From a virus: DNA of 17,850 bases. Positions 1 to 15,781 of the stretch are shown in pieces. Both the position numbers and the translations under genes were made by a program. The stretch is taken from UHGV virus genome UHGV-0200089, one strand, 5' to 3'. The stretch's first letter is position 1. Each line of letters opens with the position of its first letter. The notes beneath the pieces are model-generated. The model searched no databases. It was given only the letters and a program-made list of their open reading frames with translations, and was not told the DNA's origin.

Positions 1-1124
1 TCGCCGCTAAAGTGTCCATCGACACCTCTTCTCTGCAGTATGAGAACGATGACCTGATGCGTCCGGACTTCAACAACGATGACTACGCTATTGCTTGCTG
101 CGTAAGCCCGATGATCGTTGGTAAACAAATGCAGTTCTTCGGTGCGCGTGCAAACCTGGCGAAAACCATGCTGTACGCAATCAACGGCGGCGTTGACGAA
201 AAACTGAAAATGCAGGTTGGTCCGAAGTCTGAACCGATCAAAGGCGATGTCCTGAACTATGATGAAGTGATGGAGCGCATGGATCACTTCATGGACTGGC
301 TGGCTAAACAGTACATCACTGCACTGAACATCATCCACTACATGCACGACAAGTACAGCTACGAAGCCTCTCTGATGGCGCTGCACGACCGTGACGTTAT
401 CCGCACCATGGCGTGTGGTATCGCTGGTCTGTCCGTTGCTGCTGACTCCCTGTCTGCAATCAAATATGCGAAAGTTAAACCGATTCGTGACGAAGACGGT
501 CTGGCTATCGACTTCGAAATCGAAGGCGAATACCCGCAGTTTGGTAACAATGATCCGCGTGTAGATGACTTGGCTGTTGACCTGGTAGAACGTTTCATGA
601 AGAAAATTCAGAAACTGCACACCTACCGTGACGCTATCCCGACTCAGTCTGTTCTGACCATCACTTCTAACGTTGTGTATGGTAAGAAAACGGGTAACAC
701 CCCAGACGGTCGTCGTGCTGGCGCGCCGTTCGGACCGGGTGCTAACCCGATGCACGGTCGTGACCAGAAAGGTGCAGTAGCCTCTCTGACTTCCGTTGCT
801 AAACTGCCGTTTGCTTACGCTAAAGATGGTATCTCCTACACCTTCTCTATCGTTCCGAACGCACTGGGTAAAGACGACGAAGTTCGTAAGACCAACCTGG
901 CTGGTCTGATGGATGGTTACTTCCACCACGAAGCATCCATCGAAGGTGGTCAGCACCTGAACGTTAACGTGATGAACCGTGAAATGCTGCTCGACGCGAT
1001 GGAAAACCCGGAAAAATATCCGCAGCTGACCATCCGTGTATCTGGCTACGCAGTACGTTTCAACTCGCTGACTAAAGAACAGCAGCAGGACGTTATTACT
1101 CGTACCTTCACTCAATCTATGTAA
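1..1124 (+). CDS. pflB: Formate C-acetyltransferase (pyruvate formate-lyase), 5'-partial, C-terminal ~370 aa
   Basis: Open frame runs from the window edge to TAA at 1122-1124. The translation contains the active-site pair 'IACCVSPM' and the glycyl-radical motif 'RVSGYAV' near the C-terminus, and matches E. coli PflB as recalled. A hairpin terminator follows. Confidence 0.96.
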
Positions 1125-1166
1125 TTAGATTTGACTGAAATCGTACAGTAAAAAGCGTACAATAAA

Positions 1167-1192
1167 GGCTCCACGAAAGTGGGGCCTTTTTT
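1167..1192 (+). terminator. Rho-independent terminator downstream of pflB
   Basis: Stem GGCTCCAC / GTGGGGCC (one G-U pair) with GAAA loop, followed by TTTTTT. Confidence 0.7.
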
Positions 1193-1317
1193 AGCGCGAG
1201 AGCCTTTTTTGTCAGCTATCTATACTTTAAGGTGACTGCCAAAACAGACTCGACGTAGCCTTCGAGCTGCGCACCAACACGGCCTCAGATGGGCCACATC
1301 TGGAGAAACACCGCAAT

Positions 1318-1330
1318 GTCAGTTATTGGT
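1318..1330. repeat. attL core, direct repeat GTCAGTTATTGGT
   Basis: Identical 13-mer at 16868-16880. Here it is preceded by the native pflA RBS GGAGA and ATG (1316-1318) and followed by phage-type sequence. Confidence 0.8.
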
Positions 1331-1405
1331 GACATTTTTTGACATCTAATTGCATGAAATAAAAGGATTTATTTCTGGTCACGTCCACACATTGACCACA
1401 TCGAC

Positions 1406-1430
1406 AAAAAAAGCCCCTCAACTGAGGGGC
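1406..1430 (-). terminator. Rho-independent terminator downstream of ogr
   Basis: Stem GCCCCTC / GAGGGGC with a short loop; on the minus strand it is followed by a 7-nt T tract (A7 at 1406-1412 on plus). Confidence 0.65.
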
Positions 1431-1443
1431 TTTCTGTTTGTAA

Positions 1444-1662
1444 TTACATCCACATAATTTGCTGCCCTGACGGCAACGGGTGCGGCCTTACGGCGTGGAC
1501 TTCTCCCGGCTTCACGATGTATCTCTGTACCGACTCATAGGTGATGAACGTGGCGCTGCAATTCACGTTCTGACACTGGTGATAACGCTCTTTTGTCGTG
1601 TCAGTGATATAGCGACTTGTACGCGCATGTGCGGCATGCTGGCATAAAGGACAATGAAACAT
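1444..1662 (-). CDS. ogr: Ogr-type zinc-finger late-gene transcription activator (72 aa)
   Basis: Internal ATG at 1662-1660 gives MFHCPLCQHAAHARTSRYITDTTKERYHQCQNVNCSATF..., with CxxC...CxxxxC zinc-finger spacing, matching P2 Ogr as recalled. The 28-aa N-terminal extension in the ORF track is judged spurious. Confidence 0.88.
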   Translation of the reverse strand: MFHCPLCQHAAHARTSRYITDTTKERYHQCQNVNCSATFITYESVQRYIVKPGEVHAVRPHPLPSGQQIMWM

Positions 1663-1742
1663 CGCGAGCACCTCTTCCGGTTTTGTTGATGGTGCCATTT
1701 TAGTTAATTTATCCTTATAAAACAAACAGATAAAATAAAACA

Positions 1743-2906
1743 TCACTCATCATCTTCTGTTTCGTACTCCACATCAGAAAGCCTGACCTCAAGCTCCAAG
1801 GACGTCGTGAAGCCGCTATTATTCAGAAAATGTGTCACCTTAGTGATTGTCCAGTCCTGCTCGTCTATGACGCGCTTAAAGCCTGACACTTTGACCGGCG
1901 TTTCCGTGTAAATATCTGCCCGACCAGTGGCAAGGCTGATGGAGAACTCCGCAACGCCCCGTTGCAGTTTGTCCCACTTCGCCTGAGCGGCGCGCATGGC
2001 CTGCGCTTTCGTGGCATATACCGTGGTCAGGGCAAAAACGTTGTCAGCCTCACCGGCCATGTATTCACCTTCGCGCGCTTCCGGTACTTTTGGCTCTTTC
2101 TTCTGCGTGACCGGTTTCGCTTTCGGGTGCTCCAGTGCGCGCAGGTGTTTCTCTTTCTTTTTGCGTTTCAGTTTTACCTTCTGCTTTTGCGGCTTCGGGT
2201 CTTTGGTGTGTAACCACTTTGCCGTAACGCCGGTATAGGCTCCACGGTCAGCAATCGCAAAATGATGACGGTCGCCGTCGCTGCGGGTGATGGTGACCTG
2301 CGGGATTTTTTTACCGCTGGCCGTCACCCCCTGCCCCGCTTTGAGAAACAACAGTTTTCCCATTTTTACCGACACCTCACCGCCGTTGCGTTCTGCAAGA
2401 CGGGTCAGGAATTTCGCATCAGACTCCTGCGACTGGTCGATGTGCGGGATTTTAATTCCGGCCAGTGACGGAGCGACACTGGCCTCCAGCCTGTTACGGG
2501 TGGCTATCGCCTCAACAATCGCACCGAGCGTGGTGTCATGCCAGGAGCCTTCCCGGCGGGAATTGAGCGTCCCGCGGAAATCTGCACTCCGGGCGCGGAT
2601 GGTGACCACATCCGGTGCGCCCCGGTGTTCAACCTCATCAACGGTAAATTTCCCTTTGCATACCAGGGCAAAACCTTTCCAGCCGATATACACCGTCAGG
2701 ACAGCGCCACGAATCGGTAGCCCGACCTGCCCGTCGGCGTCGTTCAGTTCAATATCAAGCTGGTCAGCCTCAAAGCCCCGGTTATCCGTCAGGGTCATGC
2801 TCATCAGACGGTCGCTGATATTGCCGGTAATATCCCTGCTGTCGAGCATCAGCATGTAATCCGGCGTCAGCGTACTGCCTGCATCAAATGTCAGTGCATC
2901 CAGCAT
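1743..2906 (-). CDS. D: P2 gpD-like tail protein (387 aa)
   Basis: Full-length ORF with near-identity to P2 D as recalled (MLDALTFDAGSTLTPDYMLMLDSRDITGNISDRLMSMTLTDNRGFEADQLDIELND...). Its ATG overlaps the U stop as TAATG. Confidence 0.92.
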   Translation of the reverse strand: MLDALTFDAGSTLTPDYMLMLDSRDITGNISDRLMSMTLTDNRGFEADQLDIELNDADGQVGLPIRGAVLTVYIGWKGFALVCKGKFTVDEVEHRGAPDVVTIRARSADFRGTLNSRREGSWHDTTLGAIVEAIATRNRLEASVAPSLAGIKIPHIDQSQESDAKFLTRLAERNGGEVSVKMGKLLFLKAGQGVTASGKKIPQVTITRSDGDRHHFAIADRGAYTGVTAKWLHTKDPKPQKQKVKLKRKKKEKHLRALEHPKAKPVTQKKEPKVPEAREGEYMAGEADNVFALTTVYATKAQAMRAAQAKWDKLQRGVAEFSISLATGRADIYTETPVKVSGFKRVIDEQDWTITKVTHFLNNSGFTTSLELEVRLSDVEYETEDDE

Positions 2907-3385
2907 TATCCCGCCCCCGTCATACCCGTGAATCTGGTCGCCATACTGCCAGCCTTACCGATAAGCGATTCCGCCTGTTTACCGATATCGCCATAAAGCG
3001 CGGCCAGTGATTCATCAACGCGGGTGAGTGACAGCGTAAAATCAATTTTTCGGGGTGTGCCGTCTGCAAAGAAAATACTCCCTGTTTCATTCACCCTGCT
3101 GATGACATACATGCCGTAAATCATGCCGGTGCCATCCAGCAACGGCCACGCCCGGCCTTCCTCTGCCATCAGCCTGAGCGTGGTCATCGTCAGCTTGCCG
3201 CCGGTCAGTTCGGGATAAAGCACGCCGGCAAGCGTGATGTTTTCCTCACCCACACCGAGAAACTGAAAGGCATCCCGTTTACCGATACGGGAATTTGACG
3301 GCCAGCGATAATCTGATTCACGCTGCATGGTCTGGTGTGGCAGCGTCTGGCGCATAAAAACAAACATACCTAACGCGAGCATCAT
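2906..3385 (-). CDS. U: P2 gpU-like tail protein (159 aa)
   Basis: ORF beginning MMLALGMFVFMRQ..., lying between the T remnant and D as in P2. AGGAGG RBS (complement of 3394-3399) sits upstream of the ATG. Confidence 0.88.
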   Translation of the reverse strand: MMLALGMFVFMRQTLPHQTMQRESDYRWPSNSRIGKRDAFQFLGVGEENITLAGVLYPELTGGKLTMTTLRLMAEEGRAWPLLDGTGMIYGMYVISRVNETGSIFFADGTPRKIDFTLSLTRVDESLAALYGDIGKQAESLIGKAGSMATRFTGMTGAG

Positions 3386-3399
3386 TTTTCGTCACCTCC

Positions 3400-3681
3400 T
3401 TAACCGTCATGCATCATGCTGGCACGAGCGCGCGCACGTTTATCCCGCTCGTATTTTTCGAGCGCATCCTGTAACTGGCGGTCAAGCTGTGTCCCCGGCG
3501 CAGTACCACCCGTCAGGCTGATGTGATATTCGTTTTTACTCTGGTCCACATAAGAGCGGCCAGCCGGTGCCGTGACCGGCTGATAAGCCTGATAGCCTGC
3601 ATAAGAGCTGGTCGCCGGAATATAACCACCGGTGCCATACGTGGCGGCATGAGTTCTGGCGGCGGTCTGGTCAAGTGTGTC
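3400..3681 (-). pseudogene. T: C-terminal remnant of P2 gpT-like tail tape-measure gene (about 93 codons; upper boundary approximate)
   Basis: The frame ends in TAA at 3402-3400 just upstream of the U RBS, in the position T occupies in P2. The protein-like tail is ...YGTGGYIPATSSYAGYQAYQPVTAPAGRSYVDQSKNEYHISLTGG...EKYERDKRARARASMMHDG. Upstream of ~3690 the same frame reads antisense through the P remnant. Confidence 0.5.
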
Positions 3682-3684
3682 TGA

Positions 3685-3996
3685 CTCTTTGTTGATGACC
3701 CCGAGCTTTTCCAGTACACGCCGGAAATGAAAACCGCAATGGTGCTCAAGGCAAAAGACGTTATTCGCCGTGGCTGTCTGGAATATGACGTCAGCGCCAC
3801 CGACATCACCAGCTCGTTTATGGCTATCCGCAAGACCATGACCAGCAGCGGACGCAGCGCCACCTATGAGGCCAGCCGCAGCGAGGAAGCCAGCCACGCC
3901 GACCTCGCCTGGGCGACCATGCACGCTCTGTTAAATGAGCCACTCACCGCCGGTATCAGCACCCCGCTGACATCCACCATTCTGGAGTTTTACTGA
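3685..3996 (+). pseudogene. P: C-terminal remnant of P2 gpP-like terminase large subunit (5' boundary approximate)
   Basis: The frame opens after TGA at 3682-3684 and ends in TGA at 3994-3996, overlapping the Q start as TGATG, which is the P-then-Q arrangement of P2. Only ~100 codons remain, against ~590 for a full-length P. Confidence 0.5.
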
Positions 3997-5030
3997 TGAG
4001 CAAGAAAAAAGGGAAAACACCGCAACCTGCGGCAAAAACAATGACCGCCAGCGCCCCGAAAATGGAGGCATTCACCTTTGGTGATCCGGTGCCGGTACTC
4101 GACCGCCGTGACATTCTGGATTATGTCGAGTGCATCAGTAACGGCAGATGGTATGAGCCACCAGTCAGCTTTACCGGTCTGGCAAAAAGCCTGCGTGCTG
4201 CCGTGCATCACAGCTCACCGATTTACGTCAAACGCAATATTCTGGCCTCGACATTTATCCCGCATCCGTGGCTTTCCCAGCAGGATTTCAGCCGCTTTGT
4301 GCTGGATTTTCTGGTGTTCGGTAATGCGTTTCTGGAAAAGCGTTACAGCCCCACCGGTAAGGTCATCAGACTGGAAACCTCACCGGCAAAATATACCCGC
4401 CGTGGCGTGGAGGAGGATGTTTACTGGTGGGTGCCGTCCTTCAACGAGCCGACAGCCTTCGCGCCCGGTTCCGTGTTTCACCTGCTGGAGCCCGATATTA
4501 ATCAGGAGCTGTACGGCCTGCCGGAATATCTCAGCGCCCTTAACTCTGCCTGGCTGAATGAGTCGGCCACGCTGTTCCGCCGCAAGTATTACGAAAACGG
4601 CGCACATGCCGGATACATCATGTACGTTACCGATGCCGTGCAGGATCGCAACGATATCGAAATGCTTCGCGAAAACATGGTTAAGTCGAAAGGCCGCAAT
4701 AACTTTAAAAATCTGTTTCTCTATGCCCCACAGGGGAAAGCCGACGGCATTAAAATTATCCCGCTCAGTGAAGTGGCAACGAAGGACGATTTTTTTAATA
4801 TCAAAAAAGCCAGCGCCGCTGACCTGCTGGACGCGCATCGCATCCCCTTTCAGTTGATGGGGGGCAAGCCGGAGAACGTCGGGTCGCTGGGTGATATTGA
4901 GAAAGTGGCAAAGGTCTTTGTCCGCAATGAGCTTATCCCGTTACAGGACAGGATCCGCGAGATAAACGGCTGGCTCGGTCAGGAGGTCATCCGATTTAAA
5001 AACTACTCACTGGACACTGACAACGGCTGA
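3996..5030 (+). CDS. Q: P2 gpQ-like capsid portal protein (344 aa)
   Basis: Near-identity to P2 Q as recalled (MSKKKGKTPQPAAKTMTAS...AFTFGDPVPVLDRRDILDYVECISNGRWYEPPVSFTGLAKSLRAAVHHSSPIYVKRN...). GGAG RBS at 3984-3987; followed by a terminator and cos. Confidence 0.92.
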   Translation: MSKKKGKTPQPAAKTMTASAPKMEAFTFGDPVPVLDRRDILDYVECISNGRWYEPPVSFTGLAKSLRAAVHHSSPIYVKRNILASTFIPHPWLSQQDFSRFVLDFLVFGNAFLEKRYSPTGKVIRLETSPAKYTRRGVEEDVYWWVPSFNEPTAFAPGSVFHLLEPDINQELYGLPEYLSALNSAWLNESATLFRRKYYENGAHAGYIMYVTDAVQDRNDIEMLRENMVKSKGRNNFKNLFLYAPQGKADGIKIIPLSEVATKDDFFNIKKASAADLLDAHRIPFQLMGGKPENVGSLGDIEKVAKVFVRNELIPLQDRIREINGWLGQEVIRFKNYSLDTDNG

Positions 5031-5033
5031 ACA

Positions 5034-5055
5034 TCGCCGCCTGCGGGCGGCTTTT
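5034..5055 (+). terminator. Rho-independent terminator after Q
   Basis: GCCGCC / GGCGGC 6-bp GC stem with TGCG loop, followed by CTTTTTT. Confidence 0.7.
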
Positions 5056-5199
5056 TTACACCCCGTCATCACCCCCTCACACGCTCACCACCGCACAAAA
5101 CACCCCGCAGACACACCAACGCCTCAACGGGCAGACTAAGCGCCGTCACGACGCGCTCAGACGCTGAAAAAATAAAATCCGCACCACCGCCAGCGCGCA

Positions 5200-5218
5200 G
5201 TGCTTTCCCCGCCTCGCC
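5200..5218. other. cos: P2-type cos site (19-nt cohesive-end sequence)
   Basis: GTGCTTTCCCCGCCTCGCC is the reverse complement of GGCGAGGCGGGGAAAGCAC, the P2 cohesive end as recalled. It lies in a C-rich tract directly after Q, where cos sits in P2. Confidence 0.65.
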
Positions 5219-5459
5219 CGCCCGCTTCATGGGGAGGTTTTAATGCAAACGCATCAGGAAGGGCAGACCTAGTCACATGTAGAATACGATAGCAATAAAA
5301 AAGTCTAATTAGAATGCAAATTGATGCAACTCTATGCCCTCCAAGAACTCCAAACCTGAAAGATTTATGTAAAACATAGTGTTCGTTTCACCAAAATACA
5401 TATAAACTACATTAAAATAGAAATTTGTCTCACCTATAAGCCATTTAGACAACAGATTA

Positions 5460-6623
5460 ATGAGGTTTGTATCACAAATGACCACAAACGAGATACTTTC
5501 GCAGCTTATCAGTCTTGGACTCAAAGGGGATAAAGTTGCTTTTGTTCGGCAGGCTTCGAAACTCGCGCGTTCCTATGATTCTATGGGGCTGCCTGAGCTT
5601 GCTTCAGCCATTAGAGGTAGTATTCAAGATAAAAACACGTTTAACTTGCAGAAAGTATCACGCAGTACATCACCTATTTTTGAACGTCTTGATACATTAC
5701 CTGTAGATAAAGAAACTAAATTTGATTTAGCAGACGTAACTCAACCGTCTTCTGAAATTCAACTCCCATTGTTGAAAGATAGCACTCTGAAAAAAATTAA
5801 AGAATTTTTGACTTTCACTGAACGAGCTAAAGAATTAAAGGATGCCGGTCTTGGCGTGACATCCTCTATGATTTTATATGGGCCACCAGGTTGTGGTAAA
5901 ACCTTGACATCAAAATATATTGCATCCTGTCTAAATTTACCGCTTCTTACTGCAAGATGTGACTCCTTAGTCTCATCATATCTGGGGTCTACTTCTAAAA
6001 ATATCAGGCAGCTATTTGAGTATGCAAGTAAAGCACCATGTGTTTTATTTCTAGATGAACTAGATTCTCTAGCAAAGGCTAGAGATGATCAGCATGAGTT
6101 AGGTGAACTGAAGAGGGTGGTGGTTTCTTTATTGCAAAATATTGACAATCTACCTGAAGAAACAATATTGATTGCTGCAAGTAATCATGAAAATCTTCTA
6201 GATAGCGCAGTTTGGAGGCGCTTTGAGTATAGAATATCTATTGGATTGCCTGATTTTGAAGTCAGAAAACAACTATTTGAACAATATTCAAACATAAAAG
6301 CTACATATGACGATTTTGTTGATGACCTTGCGGAAATATCATCAGGGCTAAACTGCTCATTTATAGAACAATGCTGCTTAAGATCTGAGCGACATGCTCT
6401 GGTTTACAATAATAAACAAATCGATACCCGATTTTTAGTCGAGGCTATCTTAGAAGCGAAGGGAGTTACATTTGATGAAGAAGATAATTTACTTATAAAG
6501 ATTGTGACCACTCTCAGAGAATACAATCCCAAAAGATTTACAATACGAAAGATAGCAAAAATACTAGGGCTTTCAAATGCTAAAGTGTCAAGGCTAACTA
6601 AGAACTATAGAGAGATATTATGA
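5460..6623 (+). CDS. AAA+ ATPase with C-terminal HTH-like segment (387 aa); cargo gene 1 of an IetAS-like pair
   Basis: Walker A 'GPPGCGKT', Walker B 'VLFLDELD', and a sensor/arginine region 'SNHENLLDSAVWRRFEYRISIGLPD'. The C-terminal 'FTIRKIAKILGLSNAKVSRLTKNY' looks like a helix-turn-helix. The stop overlaps the next gene's start as ATGA. Start could instead be ATG 5478, which has a GAGG ~12 nt upstream. Confidence 0.85.
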   Translation: MRFVSQMTTNEILSQLISLGLKGDKVAFVRQASKLARSYDSMGLPELASAIRGSIQDKNTFNLQKVSRSTSPIFERLDTLPVDKETKFDLADVTQPSSEIQLPLLKDSTLKKIKEFLTFTERAKELKDAGLGVTSSMILYGPPGCGKTLTSKYIASCLNLPLLTARCDSLVSSYLGSTSKNIRQLFEYASKAPCVLFLDELDSLAKARDDQHELGELKRVVVSLLQNIDNLPEETILIAASNHENLLDSAVWRRFEYRISIGLPDFEVRKQLFEQYSNIKATYDDFVDDLAEISSGLNCSFIEQCCLRSERHALVYNNKQIDTRFLVEAILEAKGVTFDEEDNLLIKIVTTLREYNPKRFTIRKIAKILGLSNAKVSRLTKNYREIL

Positions 6624-8884
6624 GTAACAAAGAAAGACCAATAAAAATAATTGAGGCGACACCTCAAGATTTTACTGAAAAAACATATAATTTCGGAAAG
6701 AAACAACCTATCCGAACAGTAACAACTAGTCTAAAAAATAGACTCAAACAAGAAGTCGATGACGTTAAAAATTTTTTCCAGAGCTCATTTAAAAAATGGC
6801 CCAATATACCGGCGGTGGCTAGAGTTACTCTTCATGAAAAAGCTCTTGCTAAGTCACATCGCCCATCAAGCCTATTAGGTGATAATACATGTCCCGTAAT
6901 AGGCAGTGATAATTTTGGAGAATTACTTATAAGTGTTACTGAAAAAGGGTTAGCACAACTTCGCAAAAAAATTGAAAATAGCACTAATTCTCATAATGGG
7001 ACAGTACATATTGCTGTAATTGAAAAGATCGAACCTTTTAGTCTTAACCATGATGTTATAGATAAAAATAAATCAGATAGTTTTCTTCTGAAACTCTTTG
7101 ACCATAAAGATAGAACAACTAACCGCAGTATCGACAAAGAATTAATGGAATTTGCAGATGAACTAGGAATACAAAAACCCAAAAAGTATGATATCAGTTC
7201 AGATTTGAGTATATATGAAGTAAAAGGGAATGATAACATCGCCCAACTGGCAAGTTTTATTGGCATACGAAAATTAGAACCTATGCCAACATTTGGTCTT
7301 ACTCATACAGTATCGCAATATATTCCTGCTGAAACTCTAGACCTAGATGATTTTCCCTTACCTCAAGAGGATAAACATTATCCACTACTCGGAATTATAG
7401 ATAGCGGAGTCGATCCCAATAACAACATACTTAGGCCATGGATTTGGGATAGTTTAGATTTAGTAAAAGGAGAACACGACTATTCTCATGGGAACATGGT
7501 TGCAAGTTTAGCAATTAATGGAAGATGGTTGAATAACTATGCTGGTTTTCCTCAATGCCAAGCTGAAATTGTTGATGTTGCAGCCTTTCCCAAAGATGGT
7601 ACGCTCAAATTGCCACAATTAATGAAAGCTATCCGAGAGGCTGTGACCACCTATCCAGAAGTACGTGTATGGAATCTGTCATTAGGTTGTCAATCCCCAT
7701 GTTCTGAAGACAGCTTCTCTGAATTGGGGCATTTTTTAAATGCACTTCATGATGAGCATGATTGTCTTTTCGTCGTAGCATCCGGCAACTACATTTATGA
7801 TCCTCAACGAACCTGGCCTCCTCAAGAATTAGGTGGGCATGACAGAATATCAGCCCCCGCAGATTCTGTTCGTTCATTAACTGTTGGCTCAGTTGCCCAT
7901 TTAGAATCGTCTGACTCTGTGGTCAAAAGATTTGAACCTTCATCTTTTTCTAGAAGAGGTCCCGGCCCAGCCTTTATACCCAAACCAGAGATAAATCACT
8001 TTGGAGGTAATTGTGACAGTAAATTAAACTGTGAACATACCGGAATCATAGCTATTGGCGAGGACAATGCTCTTTGCGAAAGTATTGGCACAAGTTTATC
8101 AGCACCGTTAATCTCAAGTTTAGCGGCATCACTGTGGCATGAACTAGATGTTAATGGTTCTATTTCACCATCGCCTGAACGTATCAAGGCACTATTAATT
8201 CATTCTGCGTTAAAAAACTCACCAGCCAAAACGGAGCATTATGCGTTTAATTATCAAGGATTTGGACGCCCAAGCGATCATATAAATGATATTATTGGTT
8301 GCAATAAAAATGAGATTACATTTCTATTTGAAATAGATACCCGAGAAGGTATTGAATTCAGTAGAACGCCATTTGTAATACCACAGTCATTACGTACTGA
8401 GGATGGAAAATTCACAGGTGAAATTATTATGACACTCGTTTATTCTCCACCGCTTGATTATGACTACCCATCTGAATATTGCCGTTCTAATGTGGATGTG
8501 TCATTCGGGACTTACACTTATGATCCAGTTAACGCTAAATGGATACATAGCGGAAAAATTCCACAAATAAAAGAAAAGAGTGAATTATTTGAAAAGGTAC
8601 TGATAGAAAATGGCTTCAAATGGTCTCCAGTCAAAGTTTATAGAAAACAATTTCCGCAAGGTATAAATGGGGAGCAATGGAGACTTAAACTTGATGTTCA
8701 GAGACGAGCAGAGCAAGAGCCTCTATCTTCACCTCAACGTGCTGTATTGGCTATTACGTTAAGATCTCTTGCCAATTCTACTACAGTCTACAACGAAGCC
8801 GAGGTTGAAATAAATAATCTTGGTTGGAAAGAAACTGATATTGTTGTTCGTGAACAACCAAAAATCAGGATTCGTCAAAAATAA
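6620..8884 (+). CDS. Subtilisin-like (S8) serine peptidase with N- and C-terminal extra domains (754 aa); cargo gene 2
   Basis: S8 catalytic motifs in canonical order: Asp 'LLGIIDSGVD', His 'DYSHGNMVASLA', oxyanion Asn 'FVVASGNY', Ser 'GTSLSAPLISS'. AT-rich coding sequence; translationally coupled to the ATPase. Confidence 0.85.
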   Translation: MSNKERPIKIIEATPQDFTEKTYNFGKKQPIRTVTTSLKNRLKQEVDDVKNFFQSSFKKWPNIPAVARVTLHEKALAKSHRPSSLLGDNTCPVIGSDNFGELLISVTEKGLAQLRKKIENSTNSHNGTVHIAVIEKIEPFSLNHDVIDKNKSDSFLLKLFDHKDRTTNRSIDKELMEFADELGIQKPKKYDISSDLSIYEVKGNDNIAQLASFIGIRKLEPMPTFGLTHTVSQYIPAETLDLDDFPLPQEDKHYPLLGIIDSGVDPNNNILRPWIWDSLDLVKGEHDYSHGNMVASLAINGRWLNNYAGFPQCQAEIVDVAAFPKDGTLKLPQLMKAIREAVTTYPEVRVWNLSLGCQSPCSEDSFSELGHFLNALHDEHDCLFVVASGNYIYDPQRTWPPQELGGHDRISAPADSVRSLTVGSVAHLESSDSVVKRFEPSSFSRRGPGPAFIPKPEINHFGGNCDSKLNCEHTGIIAIGEDNALCESIGTSLSAPLISSLAASLWHELDVNGSISPSPERIKALLIHSALKNSPAKTEHYAFNYQGFGRPSDHINDIIGCNKNEITFLFEIDTREGIEFSRTPFVIPQSLRTEDGKFTGEIIMTLVYSPPLDYDYPSEYCRSNVDVSFGTYTYDPVNAKWIHSGKIPQIKEKSELFEKVLIENGFKWSPVKVYRKQFPQGINGEQWRLKLDVQRRAEQEPLSSPQRAVLAITLRSLANSTTVYNEAEVEINNLGWKETDIVVREQPKIRIRQK

Positions 8885-8917: not shown

Positions 8918-9679
8918 CTACACCTTATTATTTTCAACTATTTTATGAATATCCATATCAAACCAAGAAACTTGCGAAATTTCTTTTAGTGGAAAGATGA
9001 TACTAGTATCAGCATCCTCAAGCTCTCTATATTCATTCACCAAGATTACTTTCAATGAATCCTTATCTCTATACCCAGAGATAATAGGATAGATTGAAAC
9101 ATACTGGTTAGGTCCTTCTTTCTCGTTAGGCTCACCTAATGCGTTAACAATTCCTACATATGTCTTTTTATTTTGCAACGTAATAAGTATTGAACGTCTA
9201 TCAACTAACGAATCAAAAAATATTTCATCCATTGGATTATCATTAATAAGCTCTTGCCTCATCCTTAGCATGACAAGATTCTCATAATCAATATTGGCAG
9301 CCTTTACCCCTTGGATATAATTTATAATTTTAGCTCTATATATAACCAAATATCTAGCACCGACACTCCATATCCAAGCCAAAAATATCGTTCCACATGA
9401 AAGTAAAATCATCCATCCTATGATTCTTTCAGTACCATTGTCACTAAGTTTGAGATCTAATTGTTCCCGAACCATCGTGACAGGATGGAAGCTCGGACAT
9501 ATCCATTTTATTAAGTAAGCTATAATCAATGTCCATATAAAACACCACAGACCAAAGGCGGCTGACTTCATATATAACAACTGCCCATCATAACGGTGTA
9601 ATCTATAGAAATGATAAGGATGAGTGGTTAATACAATATAACCACTCACAAGTAATGGAATAATTAATAAAGCAAACAT
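8918..9679 (-). CDS. Uncharacterised membrane protein (253 aa), three predicted N-terminal TM helices plus a ~140-aa soluble C-terminal domain; cargo gene
   Basis: Hydrophobic segments FALLIIPLLVSGYIVLTT, AAFGLWCFIWTLIIAYLIKWI and IIGWMILLSCGTIFLAWIWSV. The ATG lies 2 nt after the upstream gene's TAA. AT-rich. No family recognised. Confidence 0.7.
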   Translation of the reverse strand: MFALLIIPLLVSGYIVLTTHPYHFYRLHRYDGQLLYMKSAAFGLWCFIWTLIIAYLIKWICPSFHPVTMVREQLDLKLSDNGTERIIGWMILLSCGTIFLAWIWSVGARYLVIYRAKIINYIQGVKAANIDYENLVMLRMRQELINDNPMDEIFFDSLVDRRSILITLQNKKTYVGIVNALGEPNEKEGPNQYVSIYPIISGYRDKDSLKVILVNEYRELEDADTSIIFPLKEISQVSWFDMDIHKIVENNKV

Positions 9680-9681
9680 TA

Positions 9682-9918
9682 TTAATTCCCTTTAGCCATT
9701 TTTTCTTCTTGCTTTACCTGCTCAGAAACTATTTTTCTTGCTTTAATTTTCATCAATTTTACTGTATCTGAGCTTGCCAAGTCTTCTTTAGACGTGATAA
9801 TCGCGCCTCGACCTACCACCTCAACAGTGTTTGTTCCAGATGCTTCAAGCCTCCTCGCCAGTTCTCTTTCCTTTTCAATAGCAGCTTTACCTATAATACG
9901 TTCAAATATATTCATCAT
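9682..9918 (-). CDS. Uncharacterised small charged protein (78 aa), first gene of the minus-strand cargo operon
   Basis: GGAGG RBS 4 nt upstream of the ATG (complement of 9916-9918). Lys/Glu-rich, predicted helical. Tightly coupled to the downstream membrane-protein gene. Confidence 0.6.
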   Translation of the reverse strand: MMNIFERIIGKAAIEKERELARRLEASGTNTVEVVGRGAIITSKEDLASSDTVKLMKIKARKIVSEQVKQEEKMAKGN

Positions 9919-10433: not shown

Positions 10434-10888
10434 TATCCAAGCCACCCGTTTTGCTGTGCACGCTCCACCTGTTCATCTGAATAGTTCCATATCCCATCCG
10501 CACCAACCACTGCCCCGCCAGACATCCCCGTCTCTGGTTCATACACAACAGCAAGGCCGAGCTGATGCATAATTTCATGATTAATTCTGAATACCAGACC
10601 ACGCTCACTAAGTTCTTTCCAGTTCACAAACTCATATGCGCCTGTATTAAGCAGCTCAATACTTAGCAAGACATAATCTTCCAGCCAGTCTGACAAGTCA
10701 GTAACATCTGTTATCCGGGCTTCAACCTTTCGCCCCGTATACACACCCTGCACCCATTCATGCAAAATCAACGTGTCCCCGCGCTCATAATTACGGTCAT
10801 TTTTCCGAAACTCTGCGCGTTTCTTTCCTTCCAGCACAAGGTCAAAATATTTTGCGTGCAGCTTTACCTCGTGAATTTTTGCCATCAT
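10433..10888 (-). CDS. ASCH/PUA-like domain protein (151 aa) in the P2 'orf91' position
   Basis: From the first ATG (10888-10886), which overlaps the gene A stop as ATGA: MMAKIHEVKLHAKYFDLVLEGKKRAEFRKNDRNYERGDTLILHEW... resembles the ASCH/DUF3850 fold signature. The C-terminal region contains 'INHEIMHQLG' (an HExxH). The track's longer GTG-initiated version is rejected. Confidence 0.72.
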   Translation of the reverse strand: MMAKIHEVKLHAKYFDLVLEGKKRAEFRKNDRNYERGDTLILHEWVQGVYTGRKVEARITDVTDLSDWLEDYVLLSIELLNTGAYEFVNWKELSERGLVFRINHEIMHQLGLAVVYEPETGMSGGAVVGADGIWNYSDEQVERAQQNGWLG

Positions 10889-13170
10889 TTCCACTCCATT
10901 ACTGTTGAGAATCCCGGCCACTCATCAGCGACCGGATACGTGAATTTTTTCCCGTCATAATTTACGGTCGCGCCACGCGCCAGCGCCTCAAGCTCCCATC
11001 GCTGCGGCCTGATACCGTTCTGAGCAAGGTCAACGCGGATACGGGTAATTTGCATTCTTTCCGACCGGGTCAGTCTGGCCGATGGTGCAATTTCATGTGG
11101 TTTTAACGGGCTTCCGTTTCTTTGCTGACGGTTTGGCGTTCTCAGGTCGTGTTTTAATGCACCCCTGAGCGCCCTCACGACCTCCGGTTCATTCCATTCA
11201 ATAACACCGTCATCAACCAGATTAAGCACTGCTGCGGCGTGCTCAGAAGGTGTGGGAGCCGGTAACGAAGTATCACCACCGGTGAGCTTTCCACAGTTAT
11301 TGACAGGACTCCGAGGCGCGGCGATGCCGCTTTTTAAAGTCAAAGGCTCAACGACCGGAACTTTCGGCACAATGCGCCAGTCCGTCGTTCTGGTGATATG
11401 AATATGACGCGCGCCGAGATGCGGCGCGTAAATGCCGACCACTCTCTCGACTTCTTCCTCGTATTCGTTAACGTCATCCGACGGGCTACGGGCGACCCTG
11501 ACAGTCTGACAATCGCGCGGGACATTTGCCCCGCCCTGCGCGCTGATATACAACGCAAAATCGCCACTGTCTGCGGCGGCGCGTGCAGCCTCCACGCGTT
11601 CGTCAAATTCATCAGCAATGCTGACGCCGCGAGGCAATTTACGTAGCTCACGGTAAGCTCCCATTGTCGGCAGGCCAACCGTTTTAAATTGCGGGATGCG
11701 CCACGTTGACGCCCATGCGGTAACAGCCGCCGCAGTATCTTTCAGCGGTCTGCCGGTATCGTTATCGAGCTGACCATCCAGTGCATAGCCGTCGATATTT
11801 TTTGAAATGTATTTCGCGATATATCCCGCAGCACCGCCCCGGTTAAGGTGTTTTGCCTGAAAACGGTTTCGCGCGGCTCCTCTTTCGTCGCCATCCTCTT
11901 TGAGCGCATAGCGGCGCATGATTTCGATAATCTGGTTACGCTGGCGTGGATTACAAAAAAGCATCATATGCCAGTGCGGCGTTCCGTCGTGGTGTGGCTC
12001 GACGACTCGCAAACCGTAGACCTGTAAATCATTATCCTTGAATGCCGTGCGCATCAGGCTCCAGATACGGCAGAGATAACGCTGCGCATCCTTTGGATTA
12101 AATGCCTCATCATTCCAGCCGTGATTAAGCTGGACGGTTTTATTTTCGCCTTTTCCAACCTGACGTGTCGGGTGATACTTTGACGGCGCGGTCAGCGTGA
12201 TAAACATCCCCACATCACCCTCTGAGGCGGCGTAACGCTCAATACCGGCAATGGTGTTCATCAGCTCCATCCGGCGAATTTCAGGATTAGAAATACTGCC
12301 CATCACCTTACTGATAAGGTCGATGCGCTCGCCGGTTTCCCTGTTTTCAAGGTCACACGATTTAAGAAATTCCAGATTTGCCTGGCGGCGCGCACGCACA
12401 TCACGAATGGCATGTTTACTGGCATAAGGTGAACGGTCTTTATTGACCTCCCCGACAGCTATCAGTAACGCCTCATGCCAGCGCATACGCTGGCCTTTAA
12501 GCTGATGAGTCCACCACTCATCGTTAAACAGACGGGCAATGGCAGAATATGCCTGCCTCGTGGTCATCTGCCCTTTACGGTATTTGTTCCAGTAGAGAGG
12601 GGAAATATTGAAAGCACGTGCAGCGCCAGCAACATGACCATAGAGGTGAGCCTGCGCCTCATCCGTAAACAGCGATTCTTTTTCGCCATGTGCATCCACC
12701 CAGGCATCGCTGAGTTCCTCATACATCATGAAAAGCTGCGATGAGATACGGGCAGCAAACTTTTTCAGCTCCTTGTCATTCATTCCCGGCAGGCGCGCAT
12801 AGTGGTCACGCTCTGCCAGAAACAGTAACGACGCGTCGGTGTTCATTTCATGGCGCTGATTCACACGCTCAATGCGCGGCCATAAACGACGCTGAAAAGT
12901 GGATGTGAGGAAATAAAACCCGTGCACCGGGCTTTTATTGCGCCGGATGTAGTCATAGCGTGAAGTAAACAGCGAGCGCAAAAAGTAAGGCAGGCGGTTA
13001 ATCGTGGATAAAACACCTTGCACCTGACGCATCTCGTCACGTGTAAGAGGTCTTTCGCGCCCGACAGCCTCGCGTGGCGCGTTCCATGCATAAGCACCGG
13101 TAAACGCCTTACCGGTGCCTGCGGCAAATGCTGACGGAGGGACAAAACGCCCGGAGGCTTTAACGGCCAT
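10885..13170 (-). CDS. A: P2 gpA-like rolling-circle replication initiation endonuclease (761 aa)
   Basis: From ATG 13170-13168 the protein begins MAVKASGRFVPPSAFAAGTGK... and carries the tyrosine motif 'YIAKYISKNIDGY'. Length and sequence match P2 A as recalled. The track's start at 13212 is a TTG extension. Confidence 0.92.
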   Translation of the reverse strand: MAVKASGRFVPPSAFAAGTGKAFTGAYAWNAPREAVGRERPLTRDEMRQVQGVLSTINRLPYFLRSLFTSRYDYIRRNKSPVHGFYFLTSTFQRRLWPRIERVNQRHEMNTDASLLFLAERDHYARLPGMNDKELKKFAARISSQLFMMYEELSDAWVDAHGEKESLFTDEAQAHLYGHVAGAARAFNISPLYWNKYRKGQMTTRQAYSAIARLFNDEWWTHQLKGQRMRWHEALLIAVGEVNKDRSPYASKHAIRDVRARRQANLEFLKSCDLENRETGERIDLISKVMGSISNPEIRRMELMNTIAGIERYAASEGDVGMFITLTAPSKYHPTRQVGKGENKTVQLNHGWNDEAFNPKDAQRYLCRIWSLMRTAFKDNDLQVYGLRVVEPHHDGTPHWHMMLFCNPRQRNQIIEIMRRYALKEDGDERGAARNRFQAKHLNRGGAAGYIAKYISKNIDGYALDGQLDNDTGRPLKDTAAAVTAWASTWRIPQFKTVGLPTMGAYRELRKLPRGVSIADEFDERVEAARAAADSGDFALYISAQGGANVPRDCQTVRVARSPSDDVNEYEEEVERVVGIYAPHLGARHIHITRTTDWRIVPKVPVVEPLTLKSGIAAPRSPVNNCGKLTGGDTSLPAPTPSEHAAAVLNLVDDGVIEWNEPEVVRALRGALKHDLRTPNRQQRNGSPLKPHEIAPSARLTRSERMQITRIRVDLAQNGIRPQRWELEALARGATVNYDGKKFTYPVADEWPGFSTVMEWK

Positions 13171-13435
13171 ATGAGCCAAAAGCCTCAGAACAACGCTTGC
13201 TGAGTTGCTCAACCTGCGCGTTTAAATCAGCAAAAGACTTTGCGCTTCCGGTCAGAATATCGTGATGCATCAGGCCGGAAACGAGCTGGCTTAATTTCGG
13301 GTAATAACCAACCACCGCCAGCCATTCCTGACCGGCGTTTTTACCGCTTTCCGCTCTCTTTTTCTCGTGGAGAATAAACTGAAAGCTGTCACTGGTAACG
13401 ACATAACGTTCGCCAATTTCGATACGAATACTCAT
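13160..13435 (-). CDS. Small early-operon protein (91 aa), P2 orf83 position
   Basis: ATG overlaps the upstream stop as ATGA; ends 8 nt before the gene A start. Assigned by synteny with P2. Confidence 0.7.
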   Translation of the reverse strand: MSIRIEIGERYVVTSDSFQFILHEKKRAESGKNAGQEWLAVVGYYPKLSQLVSGLMHHDILTGSAKSFADLNAQVEQLSKRCSEAFGSYGR

Positions 13436-13656
13436 GCCATTCTCCGGTAATGCTTGTTTTTTGCTTCAAAGACTGACTGGCAGGAAACACAACGCGTGGC
13501 TGACGGATAAGCTGCACGACGGGCAGCAGGTATTGGCGCGTCACACTCTTCGCAAACCAGCGCAGAAACACCGCAATGTTTTACCCTTGCCGCGTTAATC
13601 TGGCGCTCCAGTAATTCAGCCTGTTGTTCCTGAATAAAATCTATGTTGTCCGGCAT
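13432..13656 (-). CDS. TraR/DksA-type C4 zinc-finger protein (74 aa), P2 orf82 position
   Basis: 'CEECDAPIPAARRAAYPSATRCVSCQ' gives CxxC-(17)-CxxC spacing typical of the TraR/DksA zinc finger. TAATG coupling to the upstream gene. Confidence 0.75.
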   Translation of the reverse strand: MPDNIDFIQEQQAELLERQINAARVKHCGVSALVCEECDAPIPAARRAAYPSATRCVSCQSVFEAKNKHYRRMA

Positions 13657-13958
13657 TACCAGCTCCTTTTGTCGTTCAGCTTCTTAAATTCATCAGCGCA
13701 ATAGCTGGCGATTTCTGTCGTTAATTTTGTCAGTTCATCCACGGATGAAATTTGCTTATGAAATACAGCGCGTTTAACAAGTAAATTGACCACATCAGAC
13801 AGGAGGTTTAATTCATTCTGATAAATCGCGATAACAGATTCAGTTATGTCGCGTTTTTCTTTATCAAGACAAAGTTGAATAAGAGACAAATCGCCATTTT
13901 TCATAACGGCGATTTTTAAGGCGTTATTCAGTAATACAACTGAATGAGAACAGGACAT
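13656..13958 (-). CDS. Small early-operon protein (100 aa), P2 orf81 position
   Basis: ATG at 13958-13956 overlaps the upstream stop as TGATG. The track's TTG start at 13961 is one codon longer. Confidence 0.65.
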   Translation of the reverse strand: MSCSHSVVLLNNALKIAVMKNGDLSLIQLCLDKEKRDITESVIAIYQNELNLLSDVVNLLVKRAVFHKQISSVDELTKLTTEIASYCADEFKKLNDKRSW

Positions 13959-14182
13959 CAAAGCACCTCCCCGCGAGACAATCCGATATTGTGAAATTTT
14001 TCCGACTCCTGACTGAGCAGCTCGACTATCTCCACGCGGGATAACTCCGCCTTTGTGATATGGCGAATCATGGCGTCAAGATGAGAAGAAAAGCGCGTCG
14101 CAGCGTCGGCCTGTGCTTCGGTTCTGGCCTGTTGCAGCAGTAATGCGTATTTACCGCACTGATTTTCAGAAACTGTATGCAT
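13958..14182 (-). CDS. Small early-operon protein (74 aa), P2 orf80 position
   Basis: ATG at 14182-14180 with GGAG upstream; position between B and the orf81-like gene matches P2 synteny. Confidence 0.65.
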
Positions 14183-14245
14183 GACTTTCTCCAGGCAAAA
14201 AGAAGCCCCGCACGATTAAGTGCGTTAAAAACTCTGGTTAATTAC

Positions 14246-14746
14246 TTAATGCAGATATTGCTCTGGTTTTACCGACGTCAGAATTGTCGGTGCATACTCA
14301 AACAGGCTGAATAATTCACGTAATGCACGGAATAAAGCATCACGCCAGTAACATGACTCTTCATTAATTCGCCAGTATGGCTGGTTGAATTCTTTTTCAG
14401 TCAATCCGGCATGCATAAATAAAGTACGACGCTGACTGACTGTTAAAAAACTAATATATGCATACTCACTTGCGCCAACCTGACGGCGTTTTGAGAATGC
14501 CCCACGCAATTCATCAATTGCACAAACCAGCCGTTCACGTTCGACGTCGTTCATTTCTTCAAAACGCATCGTTGCGTGACGCTGTTTTAACTGCGCATGA
14601 AAGCAAACCGTTAACCGTTCGCGCTCCATCATCTGATTATAATAATCACATGTATCCTGCCAGCGAGGGACGGCCAGATGCTTACCAATTATCCGGCGCA
14701 TAGTTGCTGGCTGTTTTTCGACGAGATTGAGCGTCATCACTGTCAT
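14246..14746 (-). CDS. B: P2 gpB-like replication protein (166 aa; helicase-loader function as described for P2 B)
   Basis: MTVMTLNLVEKQPATMRRIIGKHLAVPRWQDTCDYYNQMMERERLTVCFHAQLKQRH... is near-identical to P2 B as recalled. Confidence 0.9.
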   Translation of the reverse strand: MTVMTLNLVEKQPATMRRIIGKHLAVPRWQDTCDYYNQMMERERLTVCFHAQLKQRHATMRFEEMNDVERERLVCAIDELRGAFSKRRQVGASEYAYISFLTVSQRRTLFMHAGLTEKEFNQPYWRINEESCYWRDALFRALRELFSLFEYAPTILTSVKPEQYLH

Positions 14747-14913
14747 TTCCAGAACCTCCGGCTTTTCAGAAAGGTCAGAGCCTTTTTTAACGGACTCTGT
14801 TTTTTGGTGCGGATAATGATTCCCTTGCGACCCTTCCCGTGGGTGATGGTGAAGTCAATCGCCCTGGGGCTTTCGTTACGCAATAACTGAGCAATACAAC
14901 GAGGCTCGTTCAT
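14743..14913 (-). CDS. Small basic protein between cox and B (P2 orf78 position); start uncertain
   Basis: The frame ends in TGA overlapping the B ATG as ATGA. The preferred start is ATG 14913-14911, which follows the cox stop and has a GGTGG RBS 5 nt upstream. In-frame ATGs at 14940, 14979 and 15000 would overlap cox. Confidence 0.5.
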   Translation of the reverse strand: MNEPRCIAQLLRNESPRAIDFTITHGKGRKGIIIRTKKQSPLKKALTFLKSRRFWK

Positions 14914-14923
14914 CCTTTCCACC

Positions 14924-15295
14924 TTAAGCCGCACGGCCATGTCTTGATTTGCTGTAACTAATGCGATTTTTCCAGTCATGCCATTCTGTCGGAGCTTCAT
15001 CAACCAGTTGGGCTGCGTACTTGTCCCACTCACGGCGATTAATCCATAATTCAGCTTTCCCTCTTGGTTTTAATGGGTCTGTCATGTAGAAGGCTGGCAG
15101 CTTTCCTGCTTTAGCCATTTCAGCCACCGCGCGTGGTGTCTTACCGATGTAAAGAGCAAAACCTTCTTTCGACAGCAAATCAGATGGGCGCTCTGAAATC
15201 TGAATGCTTTTACGTTTGGCTTCATTTTCGAAACTTGCCTCATCGCTAGTTGGACAAGAAATTTCTACATTTGTCGTCACTTTGCTATCCTCCAT
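14924..15295 (-). CDS. cox: Cox-like protein (123 aa) of the P2-type lysogeny switch
   Basis: Divergent from C and first gene of the cox-B-A early operon. The central HTH-like segment 'FALYIGKTPRAVAEMAKAGKLPAFYMTDP' is Cox/AlpA-like. The sequence differs clearly from P2 Cox as recalled. Confidence 0.65.
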   Translation of the reverse strand: MEDSKVTTNVEISCPTSDEASFENEAKRKSIQISERPSDLLSKEGFALYIGKTPRAVAEMAKAGKLPAFYMTDPLKPRGKAELWINRREWDKYAAQLVDEAPTEWHDWKNRISYSKSRHGRAA

Positions 15296-15388
15296 AAGAT
15301 TTGCGATTCACCAACTGGAGCCATCTAGAGCCTTTTTGAGTGAATCACAAATTGCCAAGTAGCAATATAATTGGAGATTAGCAAAATT
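15296..15388. promoter_or_regulatory. Immunity switch region between divergent cox and C (expected to hold the early and repressor promoters and operators)
   Basis: 93-bp AT-rich spacer between divergent starts. Contains the inverted repeat GATTCAC (15303-15309) / GTGAATC (15336-15342) and a TATAAT at 15366-15371. The assignment is by analogy with P2. Confidence 0.45.
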
Positions 15389-15688: not shown

Positions 15689-15781
15689 CGATTTATTCAG
15701 CATATGTGTGTAGTAAATGTACGAAAGAAAATTGCATTAATTTTCAAGTAGTAGAAGTAAACAGCGTCATCGGAGGGCTTT

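Follow-up and report, generated by a model that had tools for sequence, protein, structure and literature searches.

The P2 gene order and, in the shared genes, nucleotide identity of >97% are common to cryptic P2-like prophages (the ogrK-D' remnant of Escherichia coli K-12, yegQ/yegR) and to the DNA analysed here, a stretch of 17,850 nt from virus genome UHGV-0200089, which as a whole is called the window. With the K-12 ogrK remnant the window has in common a P2-family attachment site and the loss of morphogenetic genes by internal deletion. It is much less decayed, with a single deletion and with early, immunity and integration genes, cos and cargo intact, and it differs further in being located in pflA and in having an integrase and immunity of a non-P2 type. 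Intact P2-like prophages carrying IetA/IetS (e.g. CP146893.1, locus L083) share the cargo, early region and integrase type with the window and are 99.0% identical to it over 12.2 kb; prophages of the CP146893.1 type have complete P, O, N, M and other late genes, and the similarity starts at window position 3715. The satellite P4 and other helper-dependent elements resemble the window element in their small size, P2-type cos, own integrase and replication, and absence of structural genes. Unlike them, the window element is derived from a helper genome and has neither sid/psu/delta-type genes nor the P4 alpha primase.

Deletion hot spots are also known at replication-arrest or topoisomerase sites, examples being terB-associated deletions and the gyrase-mediated formation of lambda bio. 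The recurrent deletion end described below, at position 1502 of P2 (site A), is like these hot spots in its base-fixed endpoint, variable partners and very short homology, whereas it has no Ter-like sequence and its match to the gyrase motif is partial.

Judged by its sequence, the element in the window is a defective P2-like (Peduovirus) prophage of E. coli, of an ordinary kind. The prophage has a size of 15.6 kb, is inserted at the 5′ end of pflA and runs in the window in reverse of the P2 map, as seen from the ORF listing and from blastn against P2 (NC_001895). The host flanks are 99.9–100% identical to E. coli pflB/pflA. Collinearity with P2 is found in three blocks with identity of 97.1–97.7% (blastn, NC_001895): window 1355–3717 corresponds to P2 24342–21980 (attR side, ogr, D, U and the 3′ end of T; 97.4%), window 3715–5218 to P2 1502–1 (3′ end of P, Q, tQ and cos; 97.7%) and window 10665–14927 to P2 30539–26277 (orf91', A, orf83–80, B and orf78). 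The proteins Q, U, D, Ogr, B, A and orf78–83 are full length and 93–100% identical to those of P2, while the module of cox, C and int (14924–16777) is of a type unlike that of P2, with protein identity of 35–53%. The features, with positions in the window, are as follows.

1318–1330: attR core GTCAGTTATTGGT, the prophage end beside ogr; the same repeat is found at attL
1444–1662, minus strand: ogr (late-gene activator), intact; tblastn 72/72 aa, 100% identical to P2 Ogr
1743–2906, minus strand: tail gene D, intact; 387/387 aa, 99.0% identical to P2 gpD
2906–3385, minus strand: tail gene U, intact; 159/159 aa, 99.4% identical to P2 gpU
3400–3717, minus strand: T' remnant, the last 105 T codons and stop; collinear with P2 22297–21980
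3715–3717: deletion junction TAC, common to both parents, from base-by-base alignment to both P2 flanks
3715–3996, plus strand: P' remnant, the last 93 P codons and stop; collinear with P2 1502–1221
3996–5030, plus strand: portal gene Q, intact; 343/344 aa aligned, 99.1% identical to P2 gpQ
5036–5051, plus strand: tQ-like terminator, a terminator-like stem-loop at the same place as tQ in P2
5200–5218: cos, 19-nt cohesive-end sequence in single copy; exact reverse complement of P2 cosL, with matching flanks
5460–6623, plus strand: cargo IetA (AAA ATPase), near full length; PADLOC E=9e-132, Pfam AAA
6620–8884, plus strand: cargo IetS (S8 protease), near full length; PADLOC E=1e-273, Pfam Peptidase_S8
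10885–13212, minus strand: replication gene A; 760/761 aa, 98.4% identical to P2 gpA
13160–15295, minus strand: orf83, orf82, orf81, orf80, B, orf78 and cox, all full length
15371–15688, plus strand: immunity repressor C, full-length ORF, 50.5% identical to P2 C
15782–16777, plus strand: integrase, full length, 53% identical to P2 Int; Pfam Int_N and Phage_integrase
16868–16880: attL core GTCAGTTATTGGT, inside pflA; the phage provides the first 20 codons of pflA

The 13-nt att repeats bound the element, and a 331-aa tyrosine integrase is encoded beside attL; GTCAGTTATTGGT is the sole direct repeat of at least 13 nt between the prophage ends and coincides with native pflA codons 1–5. The IetA/IetS pair (5460–8884) occupies the old/tin position of P2. 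When all non-P2 ORFs were searched with Pfam and PADLOC, IetA/IetS alone were matched, the other ORFs having no family match. The products of orf83–orf78 and B are 93–99% identical to those of P2, Cox, matched by Pfam Phage_Cox (E=3e-29), belongs to another type, and across ∼40 nt the nick region of the origin, near 11312 inside A, is identical to that of P2. Thus, the repressor, Cox, integrase, replication genes with their origin, cos and the defence pair appear to be still encoded. The original prediction, made from the letters of the window, that the element keeps replication, lysogeny, integration, cos and cargo functions intact is borne out for ORFs and sites, the word ‘functions’ going beyond that level.

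The same prediction had placed remnants of the tape measure gene T and the terminase gene P at 3400–3996, fused by an internal deletion with possible microhomology at the joint. Blastn confirms the derivation of this region from T and P of a P2-family phage, in two collinear P2 blocks, and a deletion with microhomology is indeed seen, TAC at 3715–3717. Alignment to P2 puts the breakpoint at these three bases, 15–65 nt to the right of the expected 3650–3700. The two remnants lie on the strands foreseen, minus for the T C-terminus and plus for the P C-terminus; their extents had been given as 3400–3681 and 3685–3996 and have to be corrected to 3400–3717 and 3715–3996, the plus-strand open frame from 3685 consisting of 30 nt of antisense T followed by P'. 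The arrangement of T stop, GGAGG and U start and the TGATG overlap of P and Q were correctly described. Public gene callers lengthen T' to a chimeric ORF of 165 aa, which continues through P' in antisense, while the P' remnant holds an 89-aa ORF beginning at 3727.

Absent from the window is P2 1503–21979 (20,477 bp), and the blocks meet at 3715–3717. They overlap by 3 nt, TAC, with flanks CCAGTAC on the T side and CCGCTAC on the P side (5/7 match); T and P have no long repeat. Blastn and base-level alignment found no foreign DNA between the T and P blocks, such as an IS-adjacent deletion would have left. Nor does the joint look like an integrase-promoted deletion, the att cores being intact at the prophage ends and the junction sharing nothing with GTCAGTTATTGGT.

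The same 66-nt junction was found in an ENA metagenome scaffold, in NCBI GCA_052990205.1 and in the Logan assembly of SRR35729993, with flanks of 5.4–6.4 kb that are 99.98–100% identical to the window. The exact D protein of the window is present on eight contigs with the same gene order, while the junction itself was found in none of the 5,426 complete E. coli genomes of the RefSeq set. Intact relatives match the window at 98.5–99.0% over 12,170 nt, from exactly 3715 onward; the virion genes missing from the window are thus missing relative to existing complete relatives. Since complete IetAS relatives are up to 99.0% identical with the match starting exactly at 3715, the window is probably a recent deletion derivative of that lineage. 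The scar is very probably a single internal deletion of ∼20.5 kb, joined by microhomology, with a P-side end that is recurrent and non-random; no finding speaks against the deletion as such.

The parent was very probably a complete, pflA-integrated phage of this lineage that carried IetA/IetS and encoded the 331-aa integrase. Illegitimate joining of a RecA-independent type would have connected the P2-equivalent position 21980 (T codon ∼710) to 1502 (P codon 498) via TAC. With this event went 84% of P from its 5′ side, the genes O, N, M, L and X, the lysis genes, R, S, V, W, J, I, H, G, FI, FII and E, the greater part of T and the four Ogr-dependent late promoters, none of which remains. In the original prediction the whole morphogenetic core was missing, which is right for most of it and overstated in that portal gene Q and tail genes U and D remain.

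The four Ogr-dependent late promoters of P2 (pP, pO, pV and pF) are all located within the deleted interval, and a search of both strands about the junction gave no sigma-70-like promoter. P' covers positions 93–154 of the 155-position RNaseH-like Terminase_6C profile, i.e. its last 62 positions, and is a domain fragment. With the late promoters deleted, no junction promoter and P' reduced to a fragment, none of Q, U, D, P' and T' has a recognisable promoter, and all five are most probably silent relics. Having lost its capsid, terminase and lysis genes, most of its tail genes and every late promoter, the element would presumably be able neither to build virions nor to lyse its host. The junction taken alone thus describes an E. 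coli with a defective P2-like prophage that would still supply immunity and IetAS, which has annotation value and is otherwise unremarkable.

The P-side end is at P2 1502, and the retained side begins with TACACGCC. At least 17 junctions with different left sequences share a right end at P2 1502/1501, within one base. Fifteen of their partners were mapped, to the distinct P2 positions 2092, 2538, 2650 (inverted), 5593, 8546, 11319, 12759, 18033, 18478, 18759, 20595, 21297, 21983, 22305 and 22412; two of the 17 partners had no P2 match. Site-1502 junctions occur at three attachment sites (pflA, cpxP/fieF and yegQ/yegR), with unrelated att cores and three integrase types, and the cargo differs among these elements as well.

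One sample was anchored on D/U: complete E. coli genomes with D/U close to P/Q were taken, and the loci were read. Nine distinct deletion events were obtained, five of which end at P2 1502.

Window: in pflA, left end T 21980, right end P2 1502
NCTC9100: in pflA, left end T 21296, right end P2 1502
98-3133: in pflA, left end T–U spacer, 22302, right end P2 1502
PE15: in pflA, left end T 20593, right end P2 1502
K_EC180: in cpxP/fieF, left end U 22409, right end P2 1502

Both the integrase and the att core of K_EC180 differ from those of the pflA elements. The other four events end at 2117 (two), 1046 (one) and 2652 (one).

A second sample came from the 89-aa P' ORF, which is present in exact form on 490 contigs. 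This look-up gave ten further contexts, eight of which end at 1502/1501 with new partners: J at 11317, FI/FII at 18756, M at 5591, FI at 18030, a P-internal site at 2090, a stretch of P in inverted orientation that ends at 2652, and two tail-fibre regions of divergent sequence. Sampling by the P' ORF, through which many of the junctions were gathered, favours ends near 1502; it also caught one junction at 1595 and one frameshift. IMG/VR added a partner in FI (18475) and one mapping to P-internal 2538, a food metagenome added H at 12757, and an IetS look-up added a partner at 8544. Each junction type was seen in few genomes. Sampling bias and selection are possible contributors to the pattern; neither explains the base-exact identity in the D/U-anchored sample.

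The end is visible at the protein level, too: short P protein fragments (P0001–P0005, P0129) have unrelated N-termini followed by YTPEMK, and in one such fragment site 2117 is fused in frame to site 1502. A Yersinia lineage, GCCGCA/TACACGCCAGAA (here and below a slash marks the break), has its break at the homologous position, and so does a lineage 61% identical at the protein level, GGCTGT/TACAACCCC. Use of the same codon boundary with different downstream sequence in the divergent lineage could indicate selection on the product. A scan of metagenomes with a degenerate junction pattern gave 15 matches, two of them real, and the same scan of genome contigs produced unrelated chance matches only. 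A pattern scan of IMG/VR for an insertion or a left-retained counterpart at site A likewise gave chance matches only.

The joints have a common anatomy. TA stands at the crossover in 12 of the 15 mapped partners of site 1502, versus 4% in the background (for an earlier subset of 11 partners, p about 1e-9), and in the eight informative joints the base preceding TA comes from the partner and the base following it from P. Partners have G at −2 (13/17) and C at +4 (13/15), where about 0.30 is expected, a bias which implies that the parental sites resemble G-N-T-A-N-C with GC-rich shoulders. G(−2) and C(−4) of the partners mirror the left flank of site 1502, CCGC (p=0.0008, four positions), whereas C(+4) does not. 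Among ∼20 unrelated junctions in the same elements, about half have their crossover in TA and show this flanking bias too, and the remaining ones use classical 6–12-nt repeats. Site A itself stands out for none of the motifs that were scored and is one of ∼25 TA sites of similar quality in the P–Q region. That the P-side end recurs and that the joints carry a TA signature is a robust observation, apparently undescribed; no account of such a breakpoint in gene P of P2 turned up in our literature searches.

A sequence of events consistent with these observations would start with a recurrent break or stalled 3′ end between P2 1503 and 1502, giving a duplex that starts 5′-TACACGCC. The fixed end would then join another site via 0–3 nt of terminal homology, usually TA, the partner site tending toward C-S-G-K/T-A-N-C. 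Our best guess for the fixed end is a double-strand break or nick made with some sequence preference and then mended by microhomology-mediated joining. We tentatively suggest that gene P of P2-family phages may hold a conserved fragile site, CGC/TACACGCC (between P2 1503 and 1502), that is cut or stalled by a specific activity. Possibly cellular, phage or satellite in origin, with a poisoned type IIA topoisomerase or an unrecognised TA-specific nuclease/recombinase as candidates, the activity, so far not connected with prophage decay, might act on G-N-T-A-N-C-like sites and so repeatedly make complete P2-like prophages of Enterobacterales into immobile islands in which immunity, cos and defence cargo are kept.

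It is the wider pattern that gives the junction its interest: deletions disabling P2-like prophages appear to begin repeatedly at one base of the terminase gene and to have their crossovers in TA, in short sites that resemble one another. If true, the decay of prophages in Enterobacterales is mechanistically biased, in a way open to direct tests by cleavage mapping and by deletion spectra in defined mutants, with a bearing on the bacterial domestication of prophages and the keeping of defence cargo. If the tentative fragile-site reading is right, prophage domestication would be partly directed and sequence-specific, as opposed to random erosion.

Several candidate causes of the fixed end were tried and rejected. 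Hairpins or cruciforms were sought by DNA folding of 120 nt around P2 1502, 2117 and 1046, where 50-nt windows fell between the 6th and the 83rd percentile, a stability that is not unusual. A junction-made promoter was set aside, none being found around the joint, and so was protein-level selection at domain boundaries, given that sites A and B fall within the nuclease and ATPase domains. If 4-nt overhangs were simply exchanged, the bases expected at the junction, on reasoning, would differ from those seen, except where 5′ mismatches undergo repair. In all, hairpins, the origin nick, integrase cores, IS, domain boundaries and the gyrase motif were considered, and none of these explains the fixed end.

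The joints could also stem from replication slippage or microhomology-mediated end joining of the ordinary sort, starting from no special break, CCGCTAC finding many imperfect CCGNTA partners and a sampling effect adding to the picture; we regard this as doubtful. The resemblance of the partner left flanks to that of site A at −4 (C) and −2 (G), with the p-value of 0.0008 given above, is what such pairing would produce, the rarity of CTA (8% of TA sites) explains the constant mismatch at −1, and the classical 6–12-nt repeats at other junctions of the same elements speak for the same processes. Homology of 2–3 nt nevertheless fails to account for one of the 88 P–Q TA sites taking five of the nine D/U-anchored events. 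Furthermore, C at +4, on the deleted side of the partner, has no homology with site A, where the base is A; deletions of 0.6–21 kb are long for slippage, and one event has an inverted segment.

Gyrase-dependent illegitimate recombination is an established phenomenon, and a type IIA topoisomerase (gyrase or Topo IV), acting either spontaneously or under a poison (quinolones, CcdB, ParE or microcin B17), might make the fixed end; we keep this as a lead, though we hold it unlikely. Cleavage at GATAT/CCGC/TACACG would put the bottom-strand cut exactly between P2 1503 and 1502, in coincidence with the observed breakpoint; the protein-linked 4-nt overhang would then be lost, and joining would proceed via the TA beside the cut. 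The published gyrase consensus is CGGCGGTAT-NNNN-ATACCGCCG, and the determinants common to gyrase and Topo IV are −4G/+8C, −2A/+6T and −1T/+5A (PMC6379681, PMC10117906). With scoring by the published consensus, not by a real position weight matrix, site A matches 16 of 32 central positions and so ranks, in a single register, among the best 0.5% of positions in P2. Counted from a cut beside the TA, the symmetric G(−4)/C(+8) corresponds to the observed G(−2)/C(+4) bias, whereas the −2A/−1T determinant is AT and TA is seen here. The partner sites are marginal versus a late-gene TA background, and their registers are inconsistent (p from 0.006 to 0.77): initial p-values of 0.0007–0.005 were inflated by an AT-rich background, and with the late-gene TA background one of eight tests fell below 0.01. 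Many P–Q positions score like site A, and the hot sites B, C and D score poorly.

It is rather improbable that the architecture has been selected, the element being a helper-dependent mini-P2, satellite-like or a domesticated defence island, with cos, replication, integration and cargo kept for mobilisation by intact P2-like phages and with the P-side end set by selection on a product, e.g. P'+Q. The intact state of cos, the origin, A, B, int, cox, C and the defence cargo agrees with this, as do the 490 contigs with the P' ORF and the codon boundary shared by the divergent lineage, and two 15.6-kb copies (31 kb) would fit the P2 head, as inferred from P2/P4 packaging biology. Against it, P' comprises residues 498–590 and the RNaseH-like domain residues 413–571, so that folding is unlikely; the internal ATG is missing from the divergent lineage, and no promoter was found for P'/Q. 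Sister elements vary widely in size, many with further deletions in A, B or cox that abolish replication, and each junction type occurs in few genomes. Selection alone cannot fix a single-base endpoint. Pfam and PADLOC gave no capsid-size, helper-activation or anti-helper gene typical of known satellites. A packaging signal compatible with a helper is present (the exact P2 cos 19-mer with matching flanks), while genes for helper exploitation (capsid size redirection, helper derepression, own primase) are absent, and on this gene content the element is outside every satellite family.

Deletions promoted by Int or an IS classically show one fixed end and variable partners, and a site-specific recombinase or mobile element might be invoked in the form of an integrase at a secondary att, the A protein (HUH nickase) at a pseudo-origin, or an IS; such an origin is very improbable. 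The P2 att core does contain TACACG, the hexamer of site A, with 11 of 15 positions in agreement. Neither deletion end is at att, however, the core of the window itself has no TACACG, and site A is used in elements with the mutually unrelated cores AATCTCCCTTACACGGGCTTATTTTTT, GTCAGTTATTGGT and CATGTGGGGGAAGACAGGGATGGTGTC. A secondary integrase site was rejected on these grounds (three integrase types with unrelated cores use site A) and on polarity, the retained arm not fitting first-strand exchange by a tyrosine recombinase. Nicking by the P2 A protein was rejected as well, the origin nick site GCGCCTCGG/AGTCC being unlike site A and the other TA sites, and no IS is located at or near any 1502 junction.

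That T'/P' is a chimeric contig or collapsed repeat from a strain whose prophage is complete can be dismissed, even with the exact junction missing from the complete RefSeq genomes: three independent records from different projects and assemblers share the junction and its flanks, the D protein is on eight contigs, T and P have no repeat able to collapse, and sister elements with other left ends are present in finished genomes.

If the pattern holds, the 89-aa P' ORF would also serve as a simple marker for finding elements of this kind. Site 1502 is not the only recurrent end, and the others start with TA as well: TACCCG at 2117, TAACCG at 2652, TACCGG at 1045 and TATCCG at 1455. The 1046/1047 type was seen in three of 60 evenly spaced rows sampled from 1,741 matching records, which would scale up to perhaps some 90 records in all. 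P2 29940, in gene A, recurs as an end too, having been used twice with different partners.

Deletion ends recur at four further places in the terminase gene P and the neighbouring gene Q, in addition to the window's own P-side end at P2 1502 (all P2 coordinates are those of NC_001895). In each of the four the first dinucleotide is TA. The right-hand deletion ends are as follows.

P2 2117: prophage loci L004 and L009; first bases TACCCG
P2 2652: prophage loci L008 and L013; first bases TAACCG
about P2 1455: short P-fragment proteins P0119, P0008 and P0009; first bases TATCCG
P2 1046/1047: prophage locus L007 and sampled records H182-H184; first bases TACCGG

Of 1,741 E. coli records that matched, 60 rows were sampled at even intervals, and the 1046/1047 type was present in three of these; by extrapolation, some 90 records may carry it.

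Outside these P hot sites, junctions were sampled from loci L007-L057 (n about 20). Approximately half of them have a TA crossover with G at position -2 and C at position +4, and the others lie at direct repeats of 6-12 nt; this division of the sample suggests that the P2-like prophages considered here carry two classes of deletion, one made at TA crossovers and the other at 6-12-nt repeats.

A more complex event is seen in L013 (GCA_022354705.1), where locus positions 5682-5990 hold an inverted copy of P2 2343-2652. At one boundary of the copy a 24-nt stretch aligns by BLAST to both P2 2636-2659 and P2 2343-2366, while the opposite boundary is a TA joint to P2 1502. The structure is template-switch-like or of an inversion-plus-deletion kind.

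A second family of deletions (L007, L014, L018 and L049) removes cox, B, orf80-83 and part of A. Its left end at P2 29940 is recurrent (L007 and L014), reads CCGG|TA and is situated 48 nt from the origin nick; the right ends, P2 25995-26179, cluster in the cox/C control region. In the two remaining loci an end lies elsewhere.

P2 30158-30162: end of the second deletion family in L018 and L049

A breakpoint homologous to the window's P-side end is also present in L115 (Logan ERR1082442), a divergent P2-like element with a gene in the cargo position that adjoins the portal gene.

L115 locus positions 4438-6195: reverse-transcriptase (RVT_1) gene, 585 aa

In the window itself, the joint between P′ and T′, the remnants of P and of the tape-measure gene T, gives rise to an ORF called by public gene callers, also in L091 and L093.

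3400-3897, minus strand: chimeric ORF, 165 aa

It consists of 60 codons antisense to P′ and the last 105 codons of T, and has no family match. This ORF is an annotation artefact made by the junction.

The insertion point of the prophage is in the opening codons of pflA (window 1316-1330 and 16809-16880). At attR the native pflA start, ATGTCAGTTATTGGT, remains, and the new N-terminus of 20 codons is supplied by the phage, giving a PflA product of 265 aa.

The cargo occupies the P2 old/tin hot spot.

5460-8884: defence pair of IetA (AAA ATPase) and IetS (S8 protease), near full-length
8918-9918, minus strand: ORFs of 253 aa and 78 aa at the P2 tin location

An IetS protein of identical sequence has index entries in 1126 blocks of a public collection. 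Of the 10 places shown, nine are P2-like prophages in complete form, and these nine include two types of integrase. The 253-aa ORF equals P2 Tin in length and has no similarity to it by blastp; neither this ORF nor the 78-aa one has a match in Pfam or PADLOC. Both are kept beside the IetA/IetS pair in complete relatives.
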